This document shows positions 986 through 44,510 of a DNA stretch of 44,549 nt, in pieces. The DNA is taken from the IMG/VR virus record IMGVR_UViG_2721755710_000002; one strand, 5' to 3'. Origin of the DNA: a virus (lineage: Duplodnaviria > Heunggongvirae > Uroviricota > Caudoviricetes). Positions within the stretch are counted from its first letter, which is position 1. Every line of letters starts with the position of its first letter. The notes beneath the pieces were generated by a model. That model saw only the letters and a list, made by a program, of their open reading frames with translations, searched no databases and had not been told where the DNA came from. Position numbers and translations under genes: made by a program.

Positions 986-2152
986 TCATTGTATAATGTA
1001 TTTGATGGAGCTTTTTCCGTCGTATTCTTTGAGATATCGACCATAGTGCCTGAAAAGCATCTCCGGCCCTTTATGCCCCATTTGAGCTGCAAGCCAAAAC
1101 AGGTTTGCTCCTCGGCTGATATGGCTGGTGGCGAATGTATGCCTGGTTTGATATGGGTTTCTGTAACGAATACCTGCTTTTCGCAATGTTGGCACCCATG
1201 CTTTTTTCCTAATTGCATCAGCACTTGCCCAAGGCTTATTGGTCTTTGGATCTTCAAAGACAGTAGTATCCTTCATGAATGTAAATGGCTTCTGATTTAT
1301 CAGCGCCAACATTGCCTCTTCTGTCAGTTCAACTTTCCGAGTACCTGCTTTTGTCTTTGTCCCTTTGATAACACCGACAACACTTGCGCTCTGGACATGG
1401 GCAGTTTTTCCAACAAAGTCGATATCACGCCATCGAAGGGCACATAATTCAGAACTACGCAGGCCTGTATGTATAGCGAACCGGAACAGATTTTCCCATT
1501 GTTTGTTTCCGGCTGCTGCTAGTAATGCATCAACTTCTGCTGGTGATAGCGGATCAACTACGTAGCTGCTTTCTGCTTCTGACTTATCACTTTGGTAGCG
1601 CGAAGCTGTTACTAACGATACGGGGTTAATTTGAAGTACCCCATCGGTCACGGCTTCATCAAGTGCTGACCGCAGGAAAGATAACTGGTTGCGAATTGTT
1701 TTTAAGGTCGTTTTCTGATTTTGAATCCACGCTTTCAGGGTTGCTGGTGTTAATTCACTTGCAGGGCAAATGTGAAGTGAGGCTAACGCACTACGGCATT
1801 TTTTATAGCCACCAATCGTAGAGGGTGAAAGTTTTCTCGTTTCGCAGATTTCAAGGTATTCGTCCAGGTACATTTTTACCGTTTTGCCTGCAGCAGCATT
1901 ACCAAAAATTTTCAAACGAGCAGAACGGGGAAAATATTCCGCATAAATGAATGTTCCCCTTTCGATCTTATTATGAATTTCGCCGAGTGTGCGCTCGGCG
2001 TATTTAATGTTCTTTGGTGTTACTTCCAGATTGGAAAGAGGCTCACGACATTTAACACCTTTGTAGGTGAAAGTTATATTGATCGTTTCGCCCTGGCGGT
2101 GTTTCCTGATTGTTACGCCGCGCGGTAGTTTGAGCAGTTTTGTCTGGCCCAT
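986..2152 (-). CDS. int: tyrosine site-specific integrase
   Basis: 388-aa ORF; C-terminal catalytic region with HTGLRSSELCALRWRDID ... TRHTFATS ... HYGRY (R, H-x-x-R and Y typical of the phage integrase family). Confidence 0.9.
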   Translation of the reverse strand: MGQTKLLKLPRGVTIRKHRQGETINITFTYKGVKCREPLSNLEVTPKNIKYAERTLGEIHNKIERGTFIYAEYFPRSARLKIFGNAAAGKTVKMYLDEYLEICETRKLSPSTIGGYKKCRSALASLHICPASELTPATLKAWIQNQKTTLKTIRNQLSFLRSALDEAVTDGVLQINPVSLVTASRYQSDKSEAESSYVVDPLSPAEVDALLAAAGNKQWENLFRFAIHTGLRSSELCALRWRDIDFVGKTAHVQSASVVGVIKGTKTKAGTRKVELTEEAMLALINQKPFTFMKDTTVFEDPKTNKPWASADAIRKKAWVPTLRKAGIRYRNPYQTRHTFATSHISRGANLFWLAAQMGHKGPEMLFRHYGRYLKEYDGKSSIKYIIQ

Positions 2153-2331
2153 TTTGCAACCTCACTAAGATCAATCCACCTCTCCTTAACGCCTTCAACC
2201 TTTAAAACCTGAACACCTTCACGCCAAACACCGCGCTGTACACGTTTGTTTATTGCTTCAGGAGTTTCGCCAGTTTCTTTGCAATAAGTTGAGATAGGAA
2301 CACAATCGAGGTTCAGCATATGTTTCTCCAC
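2113..2331 (-). CDS. xis: excisionase-like small DNA-binding protein
   Basis: 72-aa ORF immediately upstream of and overlapping int on the same strand; basic small protein in the position and size of an excisionase. Confidence 0.55.
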   Translation of the reverse strand: MEKHMLNLDCVPISTYCKETGETPEAINKRVQRGVWREGVQVLKVEGVKERWIDLSEVAKWARQNCSNYRAA

Positions 2332-2594: not shown

Positions 2595-2953
2595 TTCTTA
2601 GTCTCTGGTGCTTTCGGCATTACTGCCCAGTGAGTGATATTGACGTTTTCAAGGTCCCCGACCTGAAATGTCCACTGCCATTCTCCGGTTTCTTTTTGTC
2701 CCCAGGTGTACCAGAGAGAACGCCAGCCAATCAGCCAGCCTTCTCCGTTAGCATCAAATAACAGAACACTTTCATTTGCTGGAGGCAGTTCAGCTGACAC
2801 TGGTATTATTTTGCTTTCCAGTGCCGCACATTTAGCTTCAAGCGCGTCGAATTTACGTACCAGATACTCAGCATTTGTTTCGTTCACTTTCAGATCTCGC
2901 GGTACACATTTCCCGCGAAGAAACCCTTCCATTTCGAAAACATTCATGCGCAT
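2591..2953 (-). CDS. hypothetical phage protein, Trp-rich C-terminus (DUF551-like)
   Basis: 120-aa ORF, operon-coupled; C-terminal W-rich segment GWLIGWRSLWYTWGQKETGEWQW resembles DUF551 (recalled). Confidence 0.5.
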   Translation of the reverse strand: MRMNVFEMEGFLRGKCVPRDLKVNETNAEYLVRKFDALEAKCAALESKIIPVSAELPPANESVLLFDANGEGWLIGWRSLWYTWGQKETGEWQWTFQVGDLENVNITHWAVMPKAPETKK

Positions 2954-3480
2954 TTGCGTAACTCCGATAATTCGTTAAAGCGTTCCATAAACATCCCGTA
3001 GGCATGGCCTGGAGCCAGTGGAATCACGTTGAACATCTCTGTTGCCGGGATACCTTCCAGCACAGGCCAGAAAGAGCCATCATCAAGCCCGAGATCGCGG
3101 CGTTCGGTTGCCAGCATGATGAGATCGGCATATTTCACGGGTGTACTCATAACCGGGGGTAACCCGTATTTCTCACGGATTACGGCGTCTATTTTTTCTT
3201 CCATCCGTTTATAGTCAGGAAGAAGGCGTTTCAGTGGAGCGGGGATGTCCTGGCAATACGCTTCTGTTGCATCATGCATTAATGCTTCAAAAGCAAATTC
3301 GTGCGGTACCAGCTGGCTGCAAAGCACCGCATGTTGGGCGACGCTGTAGAAGTGTGAAAGATGTCCTGCAAAGCGGCAGATATTTGAAAGTGAAACCGCG
3401 ATATCGTTAATATCGATGTTGTCTTTATTTATCCGGTCATAAAAAAAATGCTTCCCGGAAAAAGTTTTAATAAATGACAT
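2944..3480 (-). CDS. HD-domain phosphohydrolase (YfbR-like 5'-deoxynucleotidase family)
   Basis: H...HD motif (…LSHFYSVAQHAV… / …ALMHDATEAY…); start chosen at the internal ATG preceded by GGAGAA (ORF extends to 3543). Confidence 0.65.
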   Translation of the reverse strand: MSFIKTFSGKHFFYDRINKDNIDINDIAVSLSNICRFAGHLSHFYSVAQHAVLCSQLVPHEFAFEALMHDATEAYCQDIPAPLKRLLPDYKRMEEKIDAVIREKYGLPPVMSTPVKYADLIMLATERRDLGLDDGSFWPVLEGIPATEMFNVIPLAPGHAYGMFMERFNELSELRKCA

Positions 3481-3543
3481 TTCGTTCTCCACGTTATATG
3501 CGCTGCACCGCGTTGAATTTTGGTTGCAAGAATCCCTCGCCAT

Positions 3544-4150
3544 CCGGCGATTATTGAGTCAATTACGTTTCCATAAATGCCCCCGCTGGGGCGGTTAGTT
3601 TCTCCACAAAACAGAGAAGAACACCTACGGTAGTCACTGCCGGATGGATTGGGTTATGAGCCCGTCGTCCGGTGATGCTCTTCTCTGTTTTGTAAAAAGA
3701 GCGGTACCAGCCGGAAGCAAGGGTACAAACTGGTACCGCCAAAGCAGTGGCTGTTGTGGTGGGGTTGTCACTCAGGCGTATGGTCAACCTGACAATCCGG
3801 TGTCCTCAACGGGGAAAGAGTAACCCCGCCATACTTACCGCCGCGCCATTTCGCGGATTACCACAACGCTGAGAGCACTTAGCCAGTTACGGCACCACAC
3901 TTTGTCGCGGCTCCATAAATGCCCTCATCGTTGCACCCTGGTCTCTTCCCAGGCGTCAAACCGAATCGCCACGCTGGTTAGGCGTCTTATCAGCATCATC
4001 ATTGACTTGCACATTCCGGCTACCTGGTTTGTTTGCTCGAGCAAGGAGTGGATTGTCCCCTTTAACGTCACCAGACCGCTAACGACGCATGTGCCATACG
4101 CCGTGTTACAACCAAATTTTGTTTTAATCTTGCCTGTGTTATGTTTCTTT
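3544..4150 (-). other. ORF-free, highly structured ~600-nt leader downstream of the leftward early promoter
   Basis: No convincing ORF on either strand; a 13-mer TCCATAAATGCCC occurs twice (3570..3582 and 3911..3923); a long-range 15-bp complementarity (3606..3620 with 3681..3695) and a GGTACC-containing stem (3701..3740). Confidence 0.4.
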
Positions 4151-4151
4151 T

Positions 4152-4185
4152 AGATACATTATGTATCTCATGGGTACATTGTCAA
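4152..4185 (-). promoter_or_regulatory. candidate leftward early promoter (pL-like) with overlapping operator palindrome
   Basis: On the minus strand: TTGACA (4185..4180), 16-bp spacer, CATAAT (4163..4158). A 17-bp perfect palindrome AGATACAT-T-ATGTATCT (4152..4168) overlaps the -10. Confidence 0.45.
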
Positions 4186-4187
4186 GT

Positions 4188-4212
4188 ATAAAAAAACCTG
4201 CCGAAGCAGGTT
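4188..4212 (-). terminator. intrinsic terminator downstream of the repressor gene
   Basis: On the minus strand: AACCTGC-ttcg-GCAGGTT stem followed by a 7-U run, 13 bp past the cI stop. Confidence 0.6.
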
Positions 4213-4224
4213 CATAAATATTGA

Positions 4225-4899
4225 TTAGGCCTTTATTGTGTATCTTCTTGGTTTTCCCGAGAAAATCACTGTACCAATTATAGAGCAATTACCGTTAATC
4301 TTAATGTAAGGCTCAGGCCAGTTTGGGTTTAATGCTTTGAGATAACGCTGTGTTCCATCTTCTATCAATCGCTTGAAGGTGGTTTCGCCTGTATCGTGCA
4401 TCAATGCAATAACGTCGTCACCGTGGCAGGCAGGGACTTCGGGATCAACAAAAATCATGTCTCCAGGGCGGTACTCATCAATCATTGAATCACCAATCAC
4501 CCGCAAGATATAAGTCATTTCGCCACAGGGTACAGGGCAGGGATACGTTTCTGCTGTGCTCAAATCAACCTCAGAATAGCCAACTTCTTTCCATGCTCCG
4601 GCCTGTACCCATGATATGACAGGGACTAACGTTATTTGTTTGTTAGTGATTGAAACATCAGGTTTTTTTGTGATGTTCGTTGTCTGGTGTTCTTGATCAA
4701 GCCATCCGACAGGCAGGTCGAAACATTTTTCGATGTGCCGTGCCATGCTGTCACCGATATTTTTAGTAGCGCCATCCCCCATAAACCTGCTGGTTTGGGT
4801 TGGCTCGCGATCAATCATGGTGGCAAAGGATGAATTTCCGCCAACACCATCTCTCAGTTTTCTGGCGTTAGACCGCCGGATGTCATGGATTGTTTTCAT
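4225..4899 (-). CDS. cI: CI-type phage repressor (HTH plus LexA-like S24 peptidase domain)
   Basis: 224 aa; C-terminal autocleavage-domain hallmarks (…VIGDSM… / …FKRL…); diverges from the cro-like gene. Confidence 0.85.
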   Translation of the reverse strand: MKTIHDIRRSNARKLRDGVGGNSSFATMIDREPTQTSRFMGDGATKNIGDSMARHIEKCFDLPVGWLDQEHQTTNITKKPDVSITNKQITLVPVISWVQAGAWKEVGYSEVDLSTAETYPCPVPCGEMTYILRVIGDSMIDEYRPGDMIFVDPEVPACHGDDVIALMHDTGETTFKRLIEDGTQRYLKALNPNWPEPYIKINGNCSIIGTVIFSGKPRRYTIKA

Positions 4900-4989: not shown

Positions 4990-5190
4990 ATGAAAGCGTA
5001 TTGGGACTCTTTAACCAAAGAACAGCAGGGCGAGTTGGCCGGAAAAGTTGGCTCAACACCTGGCTACTTACGGCTGGTTTTCAATGGTTATAAAAAAGCC
5101 AGTTTTGTGCTGGCGAAAAAACTTGAGCAATGCACGTCAGGTGCAATTACGAAATCTGACTTAAGACCGGATATCTATCCGAAAGATTAA
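4990..5190 (+). CDS. cro: Cro-like small HTH regulator
   Basis: 66 aa from the ATG at 4990, preceded by GGAGG; divergent from cI. The ORF track starts earlier at 4885 but overlaps the cI start. Confidence 0.65.
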   Translation: MKAYWDSLTKEQQGELAGKVGSTPGYLRLVFNGYKKASFVLAKKLEQCTSGAITKSDLRPDIYPKD

Positions 5191-5221: not shown

Positions 5222-5785
5222 ATGAGGCTAACCGTGGGTAAGTATCACTGGAAAGTAGAAAAACAGCCTGAGTGGTACGTGAAAGCTGTCAGAAAAACTA
5301 TCGCAGCGTTGCCGGGTGGTTACGCTGAAGCAGCTGACTGGCTGGATGTAACAGAGAACGCATTATTTAACCGCCTTCGTGCCGATGGCGATCAGATTTT
5401 CCCGCTGGGATGGGCAATGGTTTTACAGCGCGCGGCTGGCACTCACTACATTGCGGATGCTGTCGCACAGTCTGCTGGTGGGGTGTTCGTATCGCTTCCT
5501 GAAATTGAGGAAGTAGAGAACGCCGATATAAACCAGCGCCTGCTGGAAGTCATCGAACAGATCGGGAATTACTCAAAGCAGATTCGTTCGGCAATCGAAG
5601 ATGGGGTCGTGGAGCCACACGAGCAGACAGCAATTAATGATGAGTTGTATCTGTCAATTTCGAAGCTCCAAGAGCATGCAGCACTGGTCTACAAAATCTT
5701 TTGCGCTCCAGAAAAGAGTGACGCCCGCGAGTGTGCAGCTCCGGGCGTCGTGGCGTTTTGTGTCTGTGGAGAAACTAACGCATGA
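5222..5785 (+). CDS. hypothetical early-right protein (possibly CII/YdaT-like regulator)
   Basis: 187-aa ORF directly after cro; function assigned by position only. Confidence 0.4.
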   Translation: MRLTVGKYHWKVEKQPEWYVKAVRKTIAALPGGYAEAADWLDVTENALFNRLRADGDQIFPLGWAMVLQRAAGTHYIADAVAQSAGGVFVSLPEIEEVENADINQRLLEVIEQIGNYSKQIRSAIEDGVVEPHEQTAINDELYLSISKLQEHAALVYKIFCAPEKSDARECAAPGVVAFCVCGETNA

Positions 5786-6618
5786 ACAGTTTAACGGCAA
5801 ATAACCGTTTGTCGCAACAGCTGGTGGTCAGCGTCGCTGAACACCTGTTGTTACGGCATGAATGCAGATTACCAAATCACCTGGCTGTAAGTAACCACAG
5901 AGAACTTTACCTGACTGTGGGGGGCGAGTTGTGCAGGAACTTAACCGCTGGTTTCGTGACGGAAGAGGACTTTATGTTCATGTTATTCGTTGGGAGCCAG
6001 AAACACAGCGCGTTATCTATCTTCGCAAAGACTACCCGCATGAGTGCTTTAGTCCTTTGTGGAAATTCAGGCGTGATTTTATTGAGTGTGAAGGACCACC
6101 AGCACATTGATTCTGCCATTCCGGGACGTTACACTGTTCAGGCACCTTATAAAGCGGGTGCCGGGATTGGCGTCCTGGAATTGATCAAGGCGATATATGA
6201 CGCGCCAGCGTCTTTTTTATCGTCCGCATTTGCTCACATCAAAGTTATGGTGGGCTGGGCGGGGGCATCGAAAGATGCGCCGGTTTCCTTGATCACCGGT
6301 TACGCCAACCCCGTTCAGTTCACCACCAGCGAAATTGGCGTTTCCGGTGGTGGAAGTATTTCACCGATCAAGGAGGCTGCCATCATGGCTACTGTCCCAG
6401 CCCTCACTCGTCTGAATGATGAAGACTTACATAAACTCAGTTATGTAACAACAGCACTACGTGCTCTGCGCAAGGTAACTCTTTCAGATCCGCAGGCGCA
6501 TCAACTTCTGGTAGAAACCCTTCTTAACTTGCAGGCTGAACGTATTCGTTTGGCGGATAAGGCTAATCTTCATATTCACCGTCTCCTGAATATCAGCGGA
6601 GGGCATCGTCATGCTTAA
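5782..6618 (+). CDS. hypothetical protein (278 aa)
   Basis: ATGA overlap with the upstream gene; no recognised motifs. Confidence 0.4.
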   Translation: MNSLTANNRLSQQLVVSVAEHLLLRHECRLPNHLAVSNHRELYLTVGGELCRNLTAGFVTEEDFMFMLFVGSQKHSALSIFAKTTRMSALVLCGNSGVILLSVKDHQHIDSAIPGRYTVQAPYKAGAGIGVLELIKAIYDAPASFLSSAFAHIKVMVGWAGASKDAPVSLITGYANPVQFTTSEIGVSGGGSISPIKEAAIMATVPALTRLNDEDLHKLSYVTTALRALRKVTLSDPQAHQLLVETLLNLQAERIRLADKANLHIHRLLNISGGHRHA

Positions 6619-44147: not shown

Positions 44148-44510
44148 TGGTGGAGCTGGCGGGAGTTGAACCCGCGTCCGAAATTCCTACATCCTCGGTA
44201 CTACATGCTTAGTCAGTCTTTACATTCGCTTGCCAGCTGCGGACGGACACGCCACTAACAAACTAGCCTGATTAAGTTTTAACGCTTCAACCCCAGGCAG
44301 GGCTTCCACGCGATCTCTTTTGGGTTTGACCTCTCTTGATCCCCGTCCTAAGAGCGGAGGCTAGGGAGAGAGGGCTCTAAGCAGGTTATTAAGCTGCTAA
44401 AGCGTAGTTTTCGTCGTTTGCGACTATTTTTTGCGGCTTTTTACGAGGCCAACCGCCCCTCGGCATGCACCTTGGGTTTCGCAAATCCCGTCGAATCCAG
44501 AATCAGCCCC
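44148..44510 (-). ncRNA. ssrA: tmRNA (SsrA), 363 nt
   Basis: The reverse complement begins GGGGCTGATTCTGGATTCGACGGGATTTGCGAAACCCAAGGTGCATGCCGAGGGGCGGTTGGCCTCGTAAAAAGCCGCAAAAAATAGTCGCAAACGACGAAAACTACGCTTTAGCAGCTTAATAA (tag-peptide ORF …ANDENYALAA*) and ends …GGACGCGGGTTCAACTCCCGCCAGCTCCACCA. Confidence 0.9.

Follow-up and report, generated by a model that had tools for sequence, protein, structure and literature searches.

What does a lambdoid prophage transcribe between its leftward early promoter and the first gene of the operon, when no gene seems to occupy that interval? The question is raised by positions 3544–4150 of IMG/VR record IMGVR_UViG_2721755710_000002, whose whole 44,549-nucleotide (nt) stretch we call the window; it is an enterobacterial lambdoid prophage with integrase and excisionase genes at its left end. 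An original prediction had described the interval as a structured 600-nt leader without an open reading frame (ORF), lying behind a leftward pL-like promoter, and had offered three readings of it: an antitermination RNA of the put type described for HK022, a regulatory noncoding RNA, or a decayed gene region. We are highly confident that conserved RNA modules make up the interval as an array, and that they have homologues in the leaders of two other operons, dicBF of the Escherichia coli (E. coli) K-12 prophage Qin and ban of phage P1. The second of the three readings is thereby upheld and sharpened, in that the array includes a homologue of the precursor of the small RNA (sRNA) DicF.

A structured, mosaic leader without genes

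The claim that no credible ORF separates pL from the first gene held up. The longest ORFs in the stretch reach 83, 74, 59, 48 and 41 amino acids (aa); three of these begin with TTG or GTG, and none of the leader ORFs matches Pfam at E≤0.1. Variability per codon position, taken from the alignment of the leader element that we call module A, is 0.230, 0.232 and 0.215, which shows no three-base periodicity. Hypothetical proteins are annotated over the leader in the GenBank records of phages Ayreon, mEp460 and mEp390. These annotations, which cover modules A and B and hairpin C described below (L001:3042–3236 and 3338–3457; L002:3042–3595; L008:2511–2753), disagree in strand, frame and length, and are probably mis-annotated noncoding RNA.

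At the RNA level the 607-nt leader folds better than its shuffles (z −4.19 on the minus strand, z −2.56 on the plus strand), confirming the unusual structure that had been noticed. The 15-base-pair (bp) complementarity between 3606–3620 and 3681–3695, also noticed originally, is real and forms the foot of a 25-bp stem at 3606–3693. Sensitive BLAST searches against phage genomes split the leader into segments with independent distributions. With transcript positions counted from 4150, positions 34–290 match P1, P7, D6, phiV10, SPN1S, a Klebsiella phage and mEp390 at 77–88% identity; positions 284–406 have counterparts in prophages of the PPompW type and in an Actinobacillus phage, with a weak match to another site in phage P1; and positions 409–607 match SfII, ST64B and others.

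All leader elements lie on the minus strand. The first is an A-rich 5′ stretch (4108–4150), mostly unpaired save for one long-range stem in the minimum-free-energy fold of the 607 nt. Its last 13 nt, UUUGGUUGUAACA, are common to phage P1, where a transfer RNA (tRNA) gene, tRNA-Ile, precedes them (alignment A1). ARAGORN found no tRNA in the leader, which ruled out a tRNA or tRNA-like element; tRNAs flank module A solely at loci resembling those of P1 and the epsilon15-like phages. Also rejected were Pas sRNAs and the anti-sRNAs AgvB and AsxR, their sites being late-region morons and not the leader.

Module A is a conserved, covarying RNA

The core of module A is a structured RNA of ∼190 nt at 3918–4107, matched by covariance model R1 with 146.1 bits over model positions 1–169. 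R1 finds exactly one copy in the window, full length, with helices P1–P4 and the invariant GGUAGCCGGAAUGUGCAAG. Because the window sequence is in the R1 seed, this score is partly by construction; independent of R1, module A is ∼80% identical to its copies in phages P1 and phiV10. The structure read from the alignment comprises hairpin P1 (4083–4103), helix P2 (4071–4079 with 4019–4027), hairpin P3 (3971–3985) and hairpin P4 (3937–3953). An invariant 19-mer, GGTAGCCGGAATGTGCAAG, spans 4006–4024. A pseudoknot, PK2, joins the P3 loop to 3955–3963, and a possible second one, PK1, joins the P1 loop (4089–4097) to 4009–4014.

We examined these pairings in alignment A2, which holds 37 module A sequences less than 94% identical to one another, aligned by MAFFT independently of structure. 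In hairpin P1 (columns 5–10/20–25), G-C is replaced by A-U in 14 sequences and by C-G once, and in P2 (columns 29–37/91–99) C-G becomes U-A in 11 sequences. Double changes occur at three pairs of P3 (columns 148–151/159–162, loop YUCACCA) and at four pairs of P4 (columns 181–185/194–198, loop GGAAGAGA). In PK2 (columns 154–157/171–174), the CACC of the P3 loop pairs with a downstream GGUG; this becomes AACC/GGUU in 5 of the 37 sequences, the window among them, with zero exceptions at that pair. Overall, 96.7% of cells are paired and 13 pairs show double changes, a level reached by none of 500 shuffles, and pairing falls to 27–45% when the partners are slid, with 51% as the ceiling among slid controls. 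PK1 would pair GCACAU of the P1 loop with AUGUGC of the invariant block; RNAalifold favors it, and it lies beyond covariation testing because its bases are invariant. Across very different phages, the single-stranded blocks of module A are invariant and the helices variable. The comparison with homologues that the original prediction had proposed as a check thus yielded compensatory changes, best documented in module A and in the P5 helix that follows it.

Distribution and contexts of module A

The invariant 19-mer matches at least 120 IMG/VR contigs. An 18-mer version of the block occurs at 27 loci among GTDB species representatives, where the copies examined as true come from Kosakonia, Citrobacter, Klebsiella, Enterobacter, Erwinia and Buttiauxella, all Enterobacterales; four non-enterobacterial matches have no P1 motif in their flanks and, with a fifth, were read as chance. 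By megablast, 1793 of the 5426 complete E. coli genomes carry module A, and 551 of the sites are plasmid-borne. In addition, a 32-nt type I-E spacer in a clustered regularly interspaced short palindromic repeats (CRISPR) array of E. coli 2012C-4502 (NZ_CP027440 1868888–1868919) is identical to window 4057–4088, spanning the 3′ strand of hairpin P1 through P2; in the window, ATG stands just before the protospacer and is a protospacer-adjacent motif functional in type I-E.

In the E. coli records listed, no annotated feature covers module A, the only entries being the adjacent tRNA-Arg and the CRISPR array, which is unrelated. The Rfam search that had been proposed found no family: in Rfam 15, nothing in the window matches module A on the transcribed strand at E≤10, and the sole overlap is CC0196 on the opposite strand (3985–4033; 14.6 bits, E 1.8). 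Nor did Rfam 15 match module A of P1, SPN1S, mEp390 or phiV10 at E≤1. A known ribozyme, riboswitch or sRNA was ruled out by these searches, permissive as their thresholds were. Full-text literature searches with core sequence strings and for RNAs of the P1 ban leader returned nothing relevant, within incomplete coverage of literature and databases. Module A thus appears to be undescribed.

In no fewer than three immunity regions that are unrelated to one another (window/Ayreon, mEp460 and mEp390), module A follows pL at a distance of 35–50 nt. In phage P1 it is found 2.6 kb into the ban operon, which C1 represses, beginning ∼15 nt after tRNA-Ile(CAU) (trnI) and ending ∼60–100 nt before the ban start codon. 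In epsilon15-like phages it occupies a divergent intergenic region, with tRNA-Arg(UCU) within two bases and then terminator-like hairpins. Its orientation is always that of the adjoining RNA genes. A hairpin-plus-U terminator lies within 1 kb of module A in 87 of 121 unique loci, mostly 300–400 nt after the anchor; with terminators this close behind, module A usually heads a short transcription unit containing only RNA.

P5, a probable processing helix

In most members of the family P4 is followed by P5, a helix of ∼20 bp (3916–3935 with 3862–3881; overall 3862–3935) that closes a variable insert and has a predicted free energy (ΔG) of −33.9 kcal/mol in the window. Its strands covary, as in CAACGAUGAGAGCA/UGCUCUCAGCGUUG, CAAUCAAAGAGCGC/GCGCUCUUUUUGAUUG and GAUGAUGGCU/AGUCAUCUUC; among 16 distinct strand pairs, 14 of 17 positions are 94–100% paired, and an internal mismatch is conserved. 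The 3′ strand motif of P5 recurs before module B in K-12 Qin as GUGCGCUUCCGGUUGUG. The RNase III-dependent long DicF species in Qin measures 190 nt (PMC10448788). Since Qin DicF ends at 1649434, counting back 190 nt puts the 5′ end at ∼1649245, inside the GUGCGCUUCCGGUUGUG motif. We therefore read P5, by homology with Qin, as a probable RNase III site that parts module A from the next cassette.

The recurrent word UGCUCU(U/C) might suggest a boxA element. This reading was rejected: the word is the 3′ strand of the covarying P5, and in relatives it becomes UGCGCUC or GUCAUCU. Another recurrent word, GGUUGU(G)G-YAA, is found before both module A (UUUGGUUGUAACA, 4108–4120) and module B (GCGUUGUGGUAAUC, 3860–3872), with CCGGUUGUGGCAAC as its Qin form; it may mark a processing or recombination boundary of RNA cassettes.

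Module B is homologous to the DicF precursor

The DicF sRNA of Qin and its 190-nt RNase III-generated precursor derive from the dicBF operon (Ragunathan & Vanderpool 2023, PMC10448788). Module B of the window (3753–3867) is a homologue of the 5′ domain of that precursor, that is, of the about 130–137 nt that immediately precede dicF in Qin and in PPompW, and has the same helices in alignment A3, which takes in K-12 Qin, PPompW, pPE4 and the P1 ban leader. In A3 it looks highly similar to the Qin sequence. Homologues are also found in the Actinobacillus phage and at the start of the P1 ban leader, beside an annotated dicF-like region. The fold consists of a closing helix (GUUGUGGU with ACCACAAC, 3860–3867 with 3753–3760), stem a (3841–3856), stem b (3829–3834 with 3778–3783), stem c (3810–3828) and a pseudoknot between GGRUUGUCA (3790–3798) and UGACAAYCC (3762–3770). 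Pairing extends to 92.9% of cells, with double changes at five pairs, a level reached by 1 of 500 shuffles; the pseudoknot and stems b and c hold the compensatory changes. The closing helix has GUUG in common with the foot of P5, so that cleavage of P5 could free this segment to close module B.

A pattern of two invariant blocks retrieved module B from at least 120 IMG/VR contigs, and module B precedes a small hairpin/terminator RNA in 128 of 128 loci. The slot after module B holds at least five alleles, which have UUUGGCGG and the terminator stem in common and differ in their loops, as might be expected if DicF-like RNAs form a family whose members have different targets. In PPompW the slot is filled by a bona fide DicF (76.7 bits). 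In the window it is filled by a DicF-like hairpin/terminator (3694–3743) made up of UUUGGCGGUACCAG, the 19-nt loop UUUGUACCCUUGCUUCCGG, CUGGUACCGC and UCUUUUU, with a stem of 11–12 bp. This hairpin has the position of DicF, directly 3′ of module B, and the form of an intrinsic terminator. The Rfam DicF model (RF00039, gathering threshold 48 bits) finds nothing at that threshold in the window, nor at E≤10 over 3400–4300, and on reading the sequence we found the ACUCCG seed of DicF absent from the loop. Predicted pairing with the ftsZ start region was no better than that of shuffles (shuffle fraction 0.48), in a test that barely discriminates, as true DicF itself gave 0.117. A canonical DicF directed at ftsZ is thus unsupported.

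Qin dicBF and the window resemble each other in several further respects. Both have a repressor-controlled pL-like promoter, a GGUUGUG junction motif with a preceding helix at the place assigned to the RNase III cut, a hairpin/terminator RNA starting UUUGGCGGUAYCAGUUU in the dicF slot, and genes beyond the terminator. They differ in what stands upstream, ydfABC in Qin and module A in the window, and in the genes downstream, dicB in Qin and yfdR-xis-int in the window. The slot alleles differ too: unlike DicF, the window allele has a perfect 11–12-bp stem and another 19-nt loop, and lacks the DicF 5′ segment UUUCUGGUGACG. DicF as an sRNA of the Qin dicBF operon reportedly goes back to work by Faubladier in 1990.

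The leader of the P1 ban operon, ordered Pban, dicF-like region, tRNA-Asn, tRNA-Thr, tciABC, tRNA-Ile and ban, is the second close parallel. Like the window, it belongs to an early operon under a repressor (C1 in P1), carries a module B-like element beside the annotated dicF-like region as well as a module A copy (∼79% identical), and has A and B interleaved with RNA genes. Unlike the window, it has B first, with A following after 2.3 kb in the interval from trnI to ban, and its module A is followed by neither a P5 helix nor a terminator. Among the 535 features of the P1 record, neither module A nor the module B-like element is annotated.

Qin-type and PPompW loci carry, after DicF, a sub-threshold element resembling STnc100/PasD (RF02076). 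In the window an STnc100 match overlapping 3437–3620 scores 12.9 bits, far under the gathering threshold of 47, and the window is therefore not counted as a member. STnc100-like elements of 33–39 bits recur beside DicF-type RNAs and in the early regions of P1 and ST64B (L158:2682–2891, L159:2766–2950, L160:2298–2416, L003:2071–2190), and an element of this kind, GUGAAUGCGGCU..GCGCACGCGG, directly follows P5 in some module A loci. Pyrimidine-rich words (CCUUG/UCCUU/CUCCUU) are found at the tip of P2 in module A (4040–4060), in the loop of stem c in module B (3815–3822) and in the DicF-like loop (3712–3722). Relatives keep these apical words while the helices around them vary; they could be seeds for purine-rich (Shine-Dalgarno-like) targets or could make tertiary contacts.

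Hairpin C and the end of the leader

Downstream of the DicF-like terminator lies hairpin C (3606–3693; ΔG −43.1 kcal/mol, z −6.2), the 25-bp stem mentioned above with a structured tip. It is ∼82% identical in ST64B, 118970_sal3 and a Klebsiella phage, and would be a second helix of the RNase III type. At a mosaic joint stands another terminator-like hairpin, weaker than the first, made up of GCCCCAGCGGGGGC (3571–3592) and then AUUUAUGG; phage Ayreon has this element at a different place, where its record labels it a terminator. The duplicated 13-mer that the original prediction had pointed out, TCCATAAATGCCC, is indeed present at 3570–3582 and, one base off the 3911 given, at 3912–3924. As a functional repeat it was ruled out, since the elements that contain it are unrelated: one copy is part of the P5 hairpin, the other of a mobile hairpin, AAATGCCCC-TGC-GGGGGCATTT, that is found 3′ of other genes in relatives. 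We treat the duplication as a coincidence or a recombination joint.

Comparison with put and nut antitermination

The likeness of the leader to the put RNAs of HK022 and HK639 lies in its being a noncoding RNA just 3′ of pL, in a lambdoid phage without N, with terminators downstream. The put consensus, however, is ∼70 nt long with two stem-loops, GAACGGCGCG..UAAACCAUGCGUCGG..GGCGGG..CGGCAAU, compared with ∼190 nt, four helices and pseudoknots in module A; one short hairpin is alike (CGGCGY..GCGUCG), and module A, unlike put, is also found outside operon-leader contexts. The hallmark activity of put RNAs is read-through of terminators in cis that depends on the zinc-binding domain of the RNA polymerase β′ subunit. 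A degenerate pattern built on the put consensus had no match in the leader. We also used a covariance model, R2, built from 12 put RNAs (alignment A5: HK022 putL and putR, HK639 putL and put-like RNAs from IMG/VR). R2 scores 96.2 bits on HK022 putL, 86.1 on HK639 putL and 49.4 on HK022 putR. Its best score in the window is 11.4 bits at 6288–6318, with nothing in 3544–4150, and it finds nothing in the module A loci of P1, SPN1S and mEp390; R1, in turn, does not match HK022 or HK639. Membership in the put family as in HK022, which the original prediction had entertained, was therefore ruled out. No second copy of module A lies on the pR side in the window, so that the paired sites of HK022 are not seen, although the HK639 record annotates putL alone and pairing is thus not universal among put phages.

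The absence of an N gene, which had been part of the prediction, was borne out for the left operon: by PHROGs and inspection of translations, the early-left ORFs are the YfdR-like phosphatase, phrog_583, phrog_1226, xis and int, none of them N-like or with an N-terminal arginine-rich motif. Words resembling boxA occur in the window at chance level (26 found against 30 expected). The lambda N leader, with nutL and an RNase III site, is similar in being a long 5′ leader behind pL with an RNase III-type helix; the window differs in having neither an N gene in the left operon nor a convincing boxA/boxB. Judged from sequence, we take the leader element to be neither a put nor a nut system.

In the course of these comparisons, put-like RNAs themselves proved common in IMG/VR. 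A 15-mer, TAAACCATGCGTCGG, occurs in at least 120 contigs, most of them with the full AGWCGAACGGCGCG..GGCGGG..CGGCAAU; examples are L130:740–811 (−), L265:8249–8320 (−) and L266–L385. No put family turned up in our Rfam searches, none of which covered the HK022 or HK639 loci.

Promoter, flanking genes and other RNAs of the window

The predicted leftward promoter was confirmed by a consensus scan. It lies at 4158–4185 on the minus strand, with −35 TTGACA (4180–4185), −10 CATAAT (4158–4163) and a 16-nt spacer (11 of 12 matches), and transcription would start at about 4150. By consensus this is a real promoter, and its position 3′ of the repressor gene and terminator suggests that it functions as pL. 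A 17-bp perfect palindrome, AGATACATAATGTATCT (4152–4168), overlaps the −10 and is a candidate OL operator. Directly 5′ of pL is the terminator of the repressor gene, a hairpin plus U (4213–4194, minus strand), and beyond it are genes assigned by PHROGs to a CI/S24-type repressor (4225–4899, minus strand), a Cro-like protein (4990–5187) and a CII-like protein (5222–5782).

The first early-left gene encodes a YfdR-like HD-domain deoxynucleoside monophosphate (dNMP) phosphatase (2944–3490 including the Shine-Dalgarno sequence, minus strand; phrog_318, E 8.7e-110). In the long ORF, PHROG profile matches set in only at residues 9 and 22; a Shine-Dalgarno sequence (GGAG, 3487–3490) stands 7 nt 5′ of ATG 3480, which is the likely true start. 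The leader is therefore free of ORFs as claimed and ∼670 nt long rather than 600 nt if translation begins there. Two small genes follow, and then xis (2113–2331, minus strand) and int (986–2152, minus strand). A complete transfer-messenger RNA gene lies at the right end of the window (44148–44510, minus strand; 296 bits, tag ANDENYALAA), opposite the int/xis end, and the prophage is probably integrated at ssrA. In the pR operon, Rfam isrK (6142–6218, plus strand; 64 bits) is found beside a P1-type C4 antisense RNA (6243–6330, plus strand; 82 bits). Both lie within a 278-aa ORF (5782–6618) that PHROGs labels a transcriptional regulator, and the overlap means that this ORF call may be partly spurious. 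From its sequence the pair looks like the module of P1 immI and Gifsy-1 IsrK.

Discussion

We consider it reasonably probable that the leader is a repressor-controlled, pL-driven precursor of exchangeable noncoding RNA cassettes. Upon derepression, pL would transcribe in order module A, P5, module B with the DicF-like hairpin/terminator, hairpin C and the second weak terminator. Most transcripts would probably end at the DicF-like terminator, giving an RNA of ∼455 nt. By homology with Qin, RNase III probably cuts P5 and, in read-through transcripts, hairpin C. Cleavage at P5 would free module A and a species of ∼170 nt comprising module B and the DicF-like hairpin, the equivalent of the 190-nt long DicF; as in Qin, RNase E may shorten this species further, leaving a small hairpin RNA. 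The freed RNAs would act in trans on host targets. Polymerases that read through would supply yfdR, the two small genes, xis and int, and because only this fraction would feed yfdR-xis-int, the terminators would act as attenuators.

As for module A itself, we would guess that it is a stable RNA of the early lytic cycle that binds protein or RNA. More tentatively, we speculate that it represents a new class of large functional RNA in temperate enterobacterial phages (lambdoid, P1 and epsilon15-like), acting early after induction on a host machine or defense system. It might serve as a decoy for a protein, soak up a nucleotide signal, be a factor linked to tRNA, or modify RNA polymerase by way of a fold unrelated to put.

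Several points weigh against the account of the leader as a cassette precursor. Module A of P1 and of the mEp390-type loci has no P5 or terminator after it, so that the cassette grammar is not universal. The assignment of RNase III to P5 comes from Qin homology and helix length, and action of module A in trans is conjectural. Covariation in module B is modest because its sequences are close, and the DicF-like hairpin, failing both the Rfam DicF model and ftsZ pairing, may be only a terminator.

Among the alternatives, the one that survives best makes module A, by itself or together with module B, a processive antiterminator acting in cis, put-like in role with a different fold, which would modify its own polymerase to read through the DicF-like terminator and the second hairpin and so express yfdR, xis and int from pL. 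The left operon does lack an N-like gene and does have two terminator-like hairpins before its first gene; module A does begin 35–50 nt after pL in unrelated immunity regions, and its P1 hairpin (CGGCGU..GCGUCG) resembles a put stem (CGGCGC..GCGUCG). We nevertheless regard this as unlikely. The put model is blank in the leader and the module A model is blank on HK022 and HK639, the pR side has no copy, the epsilon15-like module A heads a short unit of tRNA-Arg and terminator, and in P1, where it is 2.6 kb into the operon, it immediately precedes ban and lacks a terminator behind it. Furthermore, Qin-type prophages read through a terminator of the DicF kind into dicB without module A (PMC10448788).

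It is rather improbable that the leader is mainly a cis-regulatory 5′ untranslated region (UTR), in which structure shields the transcript from Rho and RNases, the terminators attenuate int and xis, and the modules have no separate RNA function. Such a view would accommodate the strong overall fold (z −4.19), the terminator-like hairpins ahead of the first gene and the placement of P1 module A within the 5′ UTR of ban. However, generic structure leaves 19 invariant bases and a covarying pseudoknot unexplained; module A is ∼80% identical across unrelated phage types with different downstream genes, some module A units hold RNA genes only, and module B is part of an RNA species detected experimentally in K-12 (PMC10448788).

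Quite improbable is a third alternative, that module A is a ligand-sensing or catalytic RNA, either a riboswitch or a self-cleaving or processing ribozyme, which controls or matures the RNA that follows. A complex fold with one covariation-supported pseudoknot and possibly a second, long invariant single-stranded segments and abutting tRNA genes in two phage groups are what such an RNA might display, but no Rfam ribozyme or riboswitch model matches even at E≤10, no expression platform is conserved, as the downstream sequence differs by context, and the tRNA has no conserved end position relative to the fold, being upstream in P1 and downstream in the epsilon15-like phages. The last alternative, a decayed, pseudogenised coding region as the original prediction had allowed, has the hypothetical proteins of some GenBank records in its favor and is hardly credible, because the annotated ORFs vary in strand, frame and length even among near-identical phages, Pfam matches and codon periodicity are absent, substitutions are compensatory in RNA helices, and the modules are kept as RNA one by one, independently of each other, in phages of unrelated background.

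No system in RNA biology has been studied better than E. coli with its phages, yet a pseudoknotted RNA of ∼190 nt is apparently absent from Rfam 15, from RefSeq/GenBank annotation and from the literature searched. On the reading that we favor, a precursor of exchangeable RNA cassettes, the Qin DicF locus is one instance of a wider modular system that combines a conserved pseudoknotted precursor domain with interchangeable small-RNA alleles and sets RNase III-type helices between RNA genes. The DicF-precursor part of the leader is a variant of a known system; module A, by its breadth, invariant segments and fold, is a good candidate for a new class of functional RNA. These ideas are testable in the tractable phages P1, mEp460 and Ayreon. 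If they are true, the pL leaders of N-less lambdoid phages would be RNA operons of shuffled cassettes bounded by RNase III hairpins, which bears on how early-left expression is controlled in N-less temperate phages and on which RNAs they deploy first after induction.

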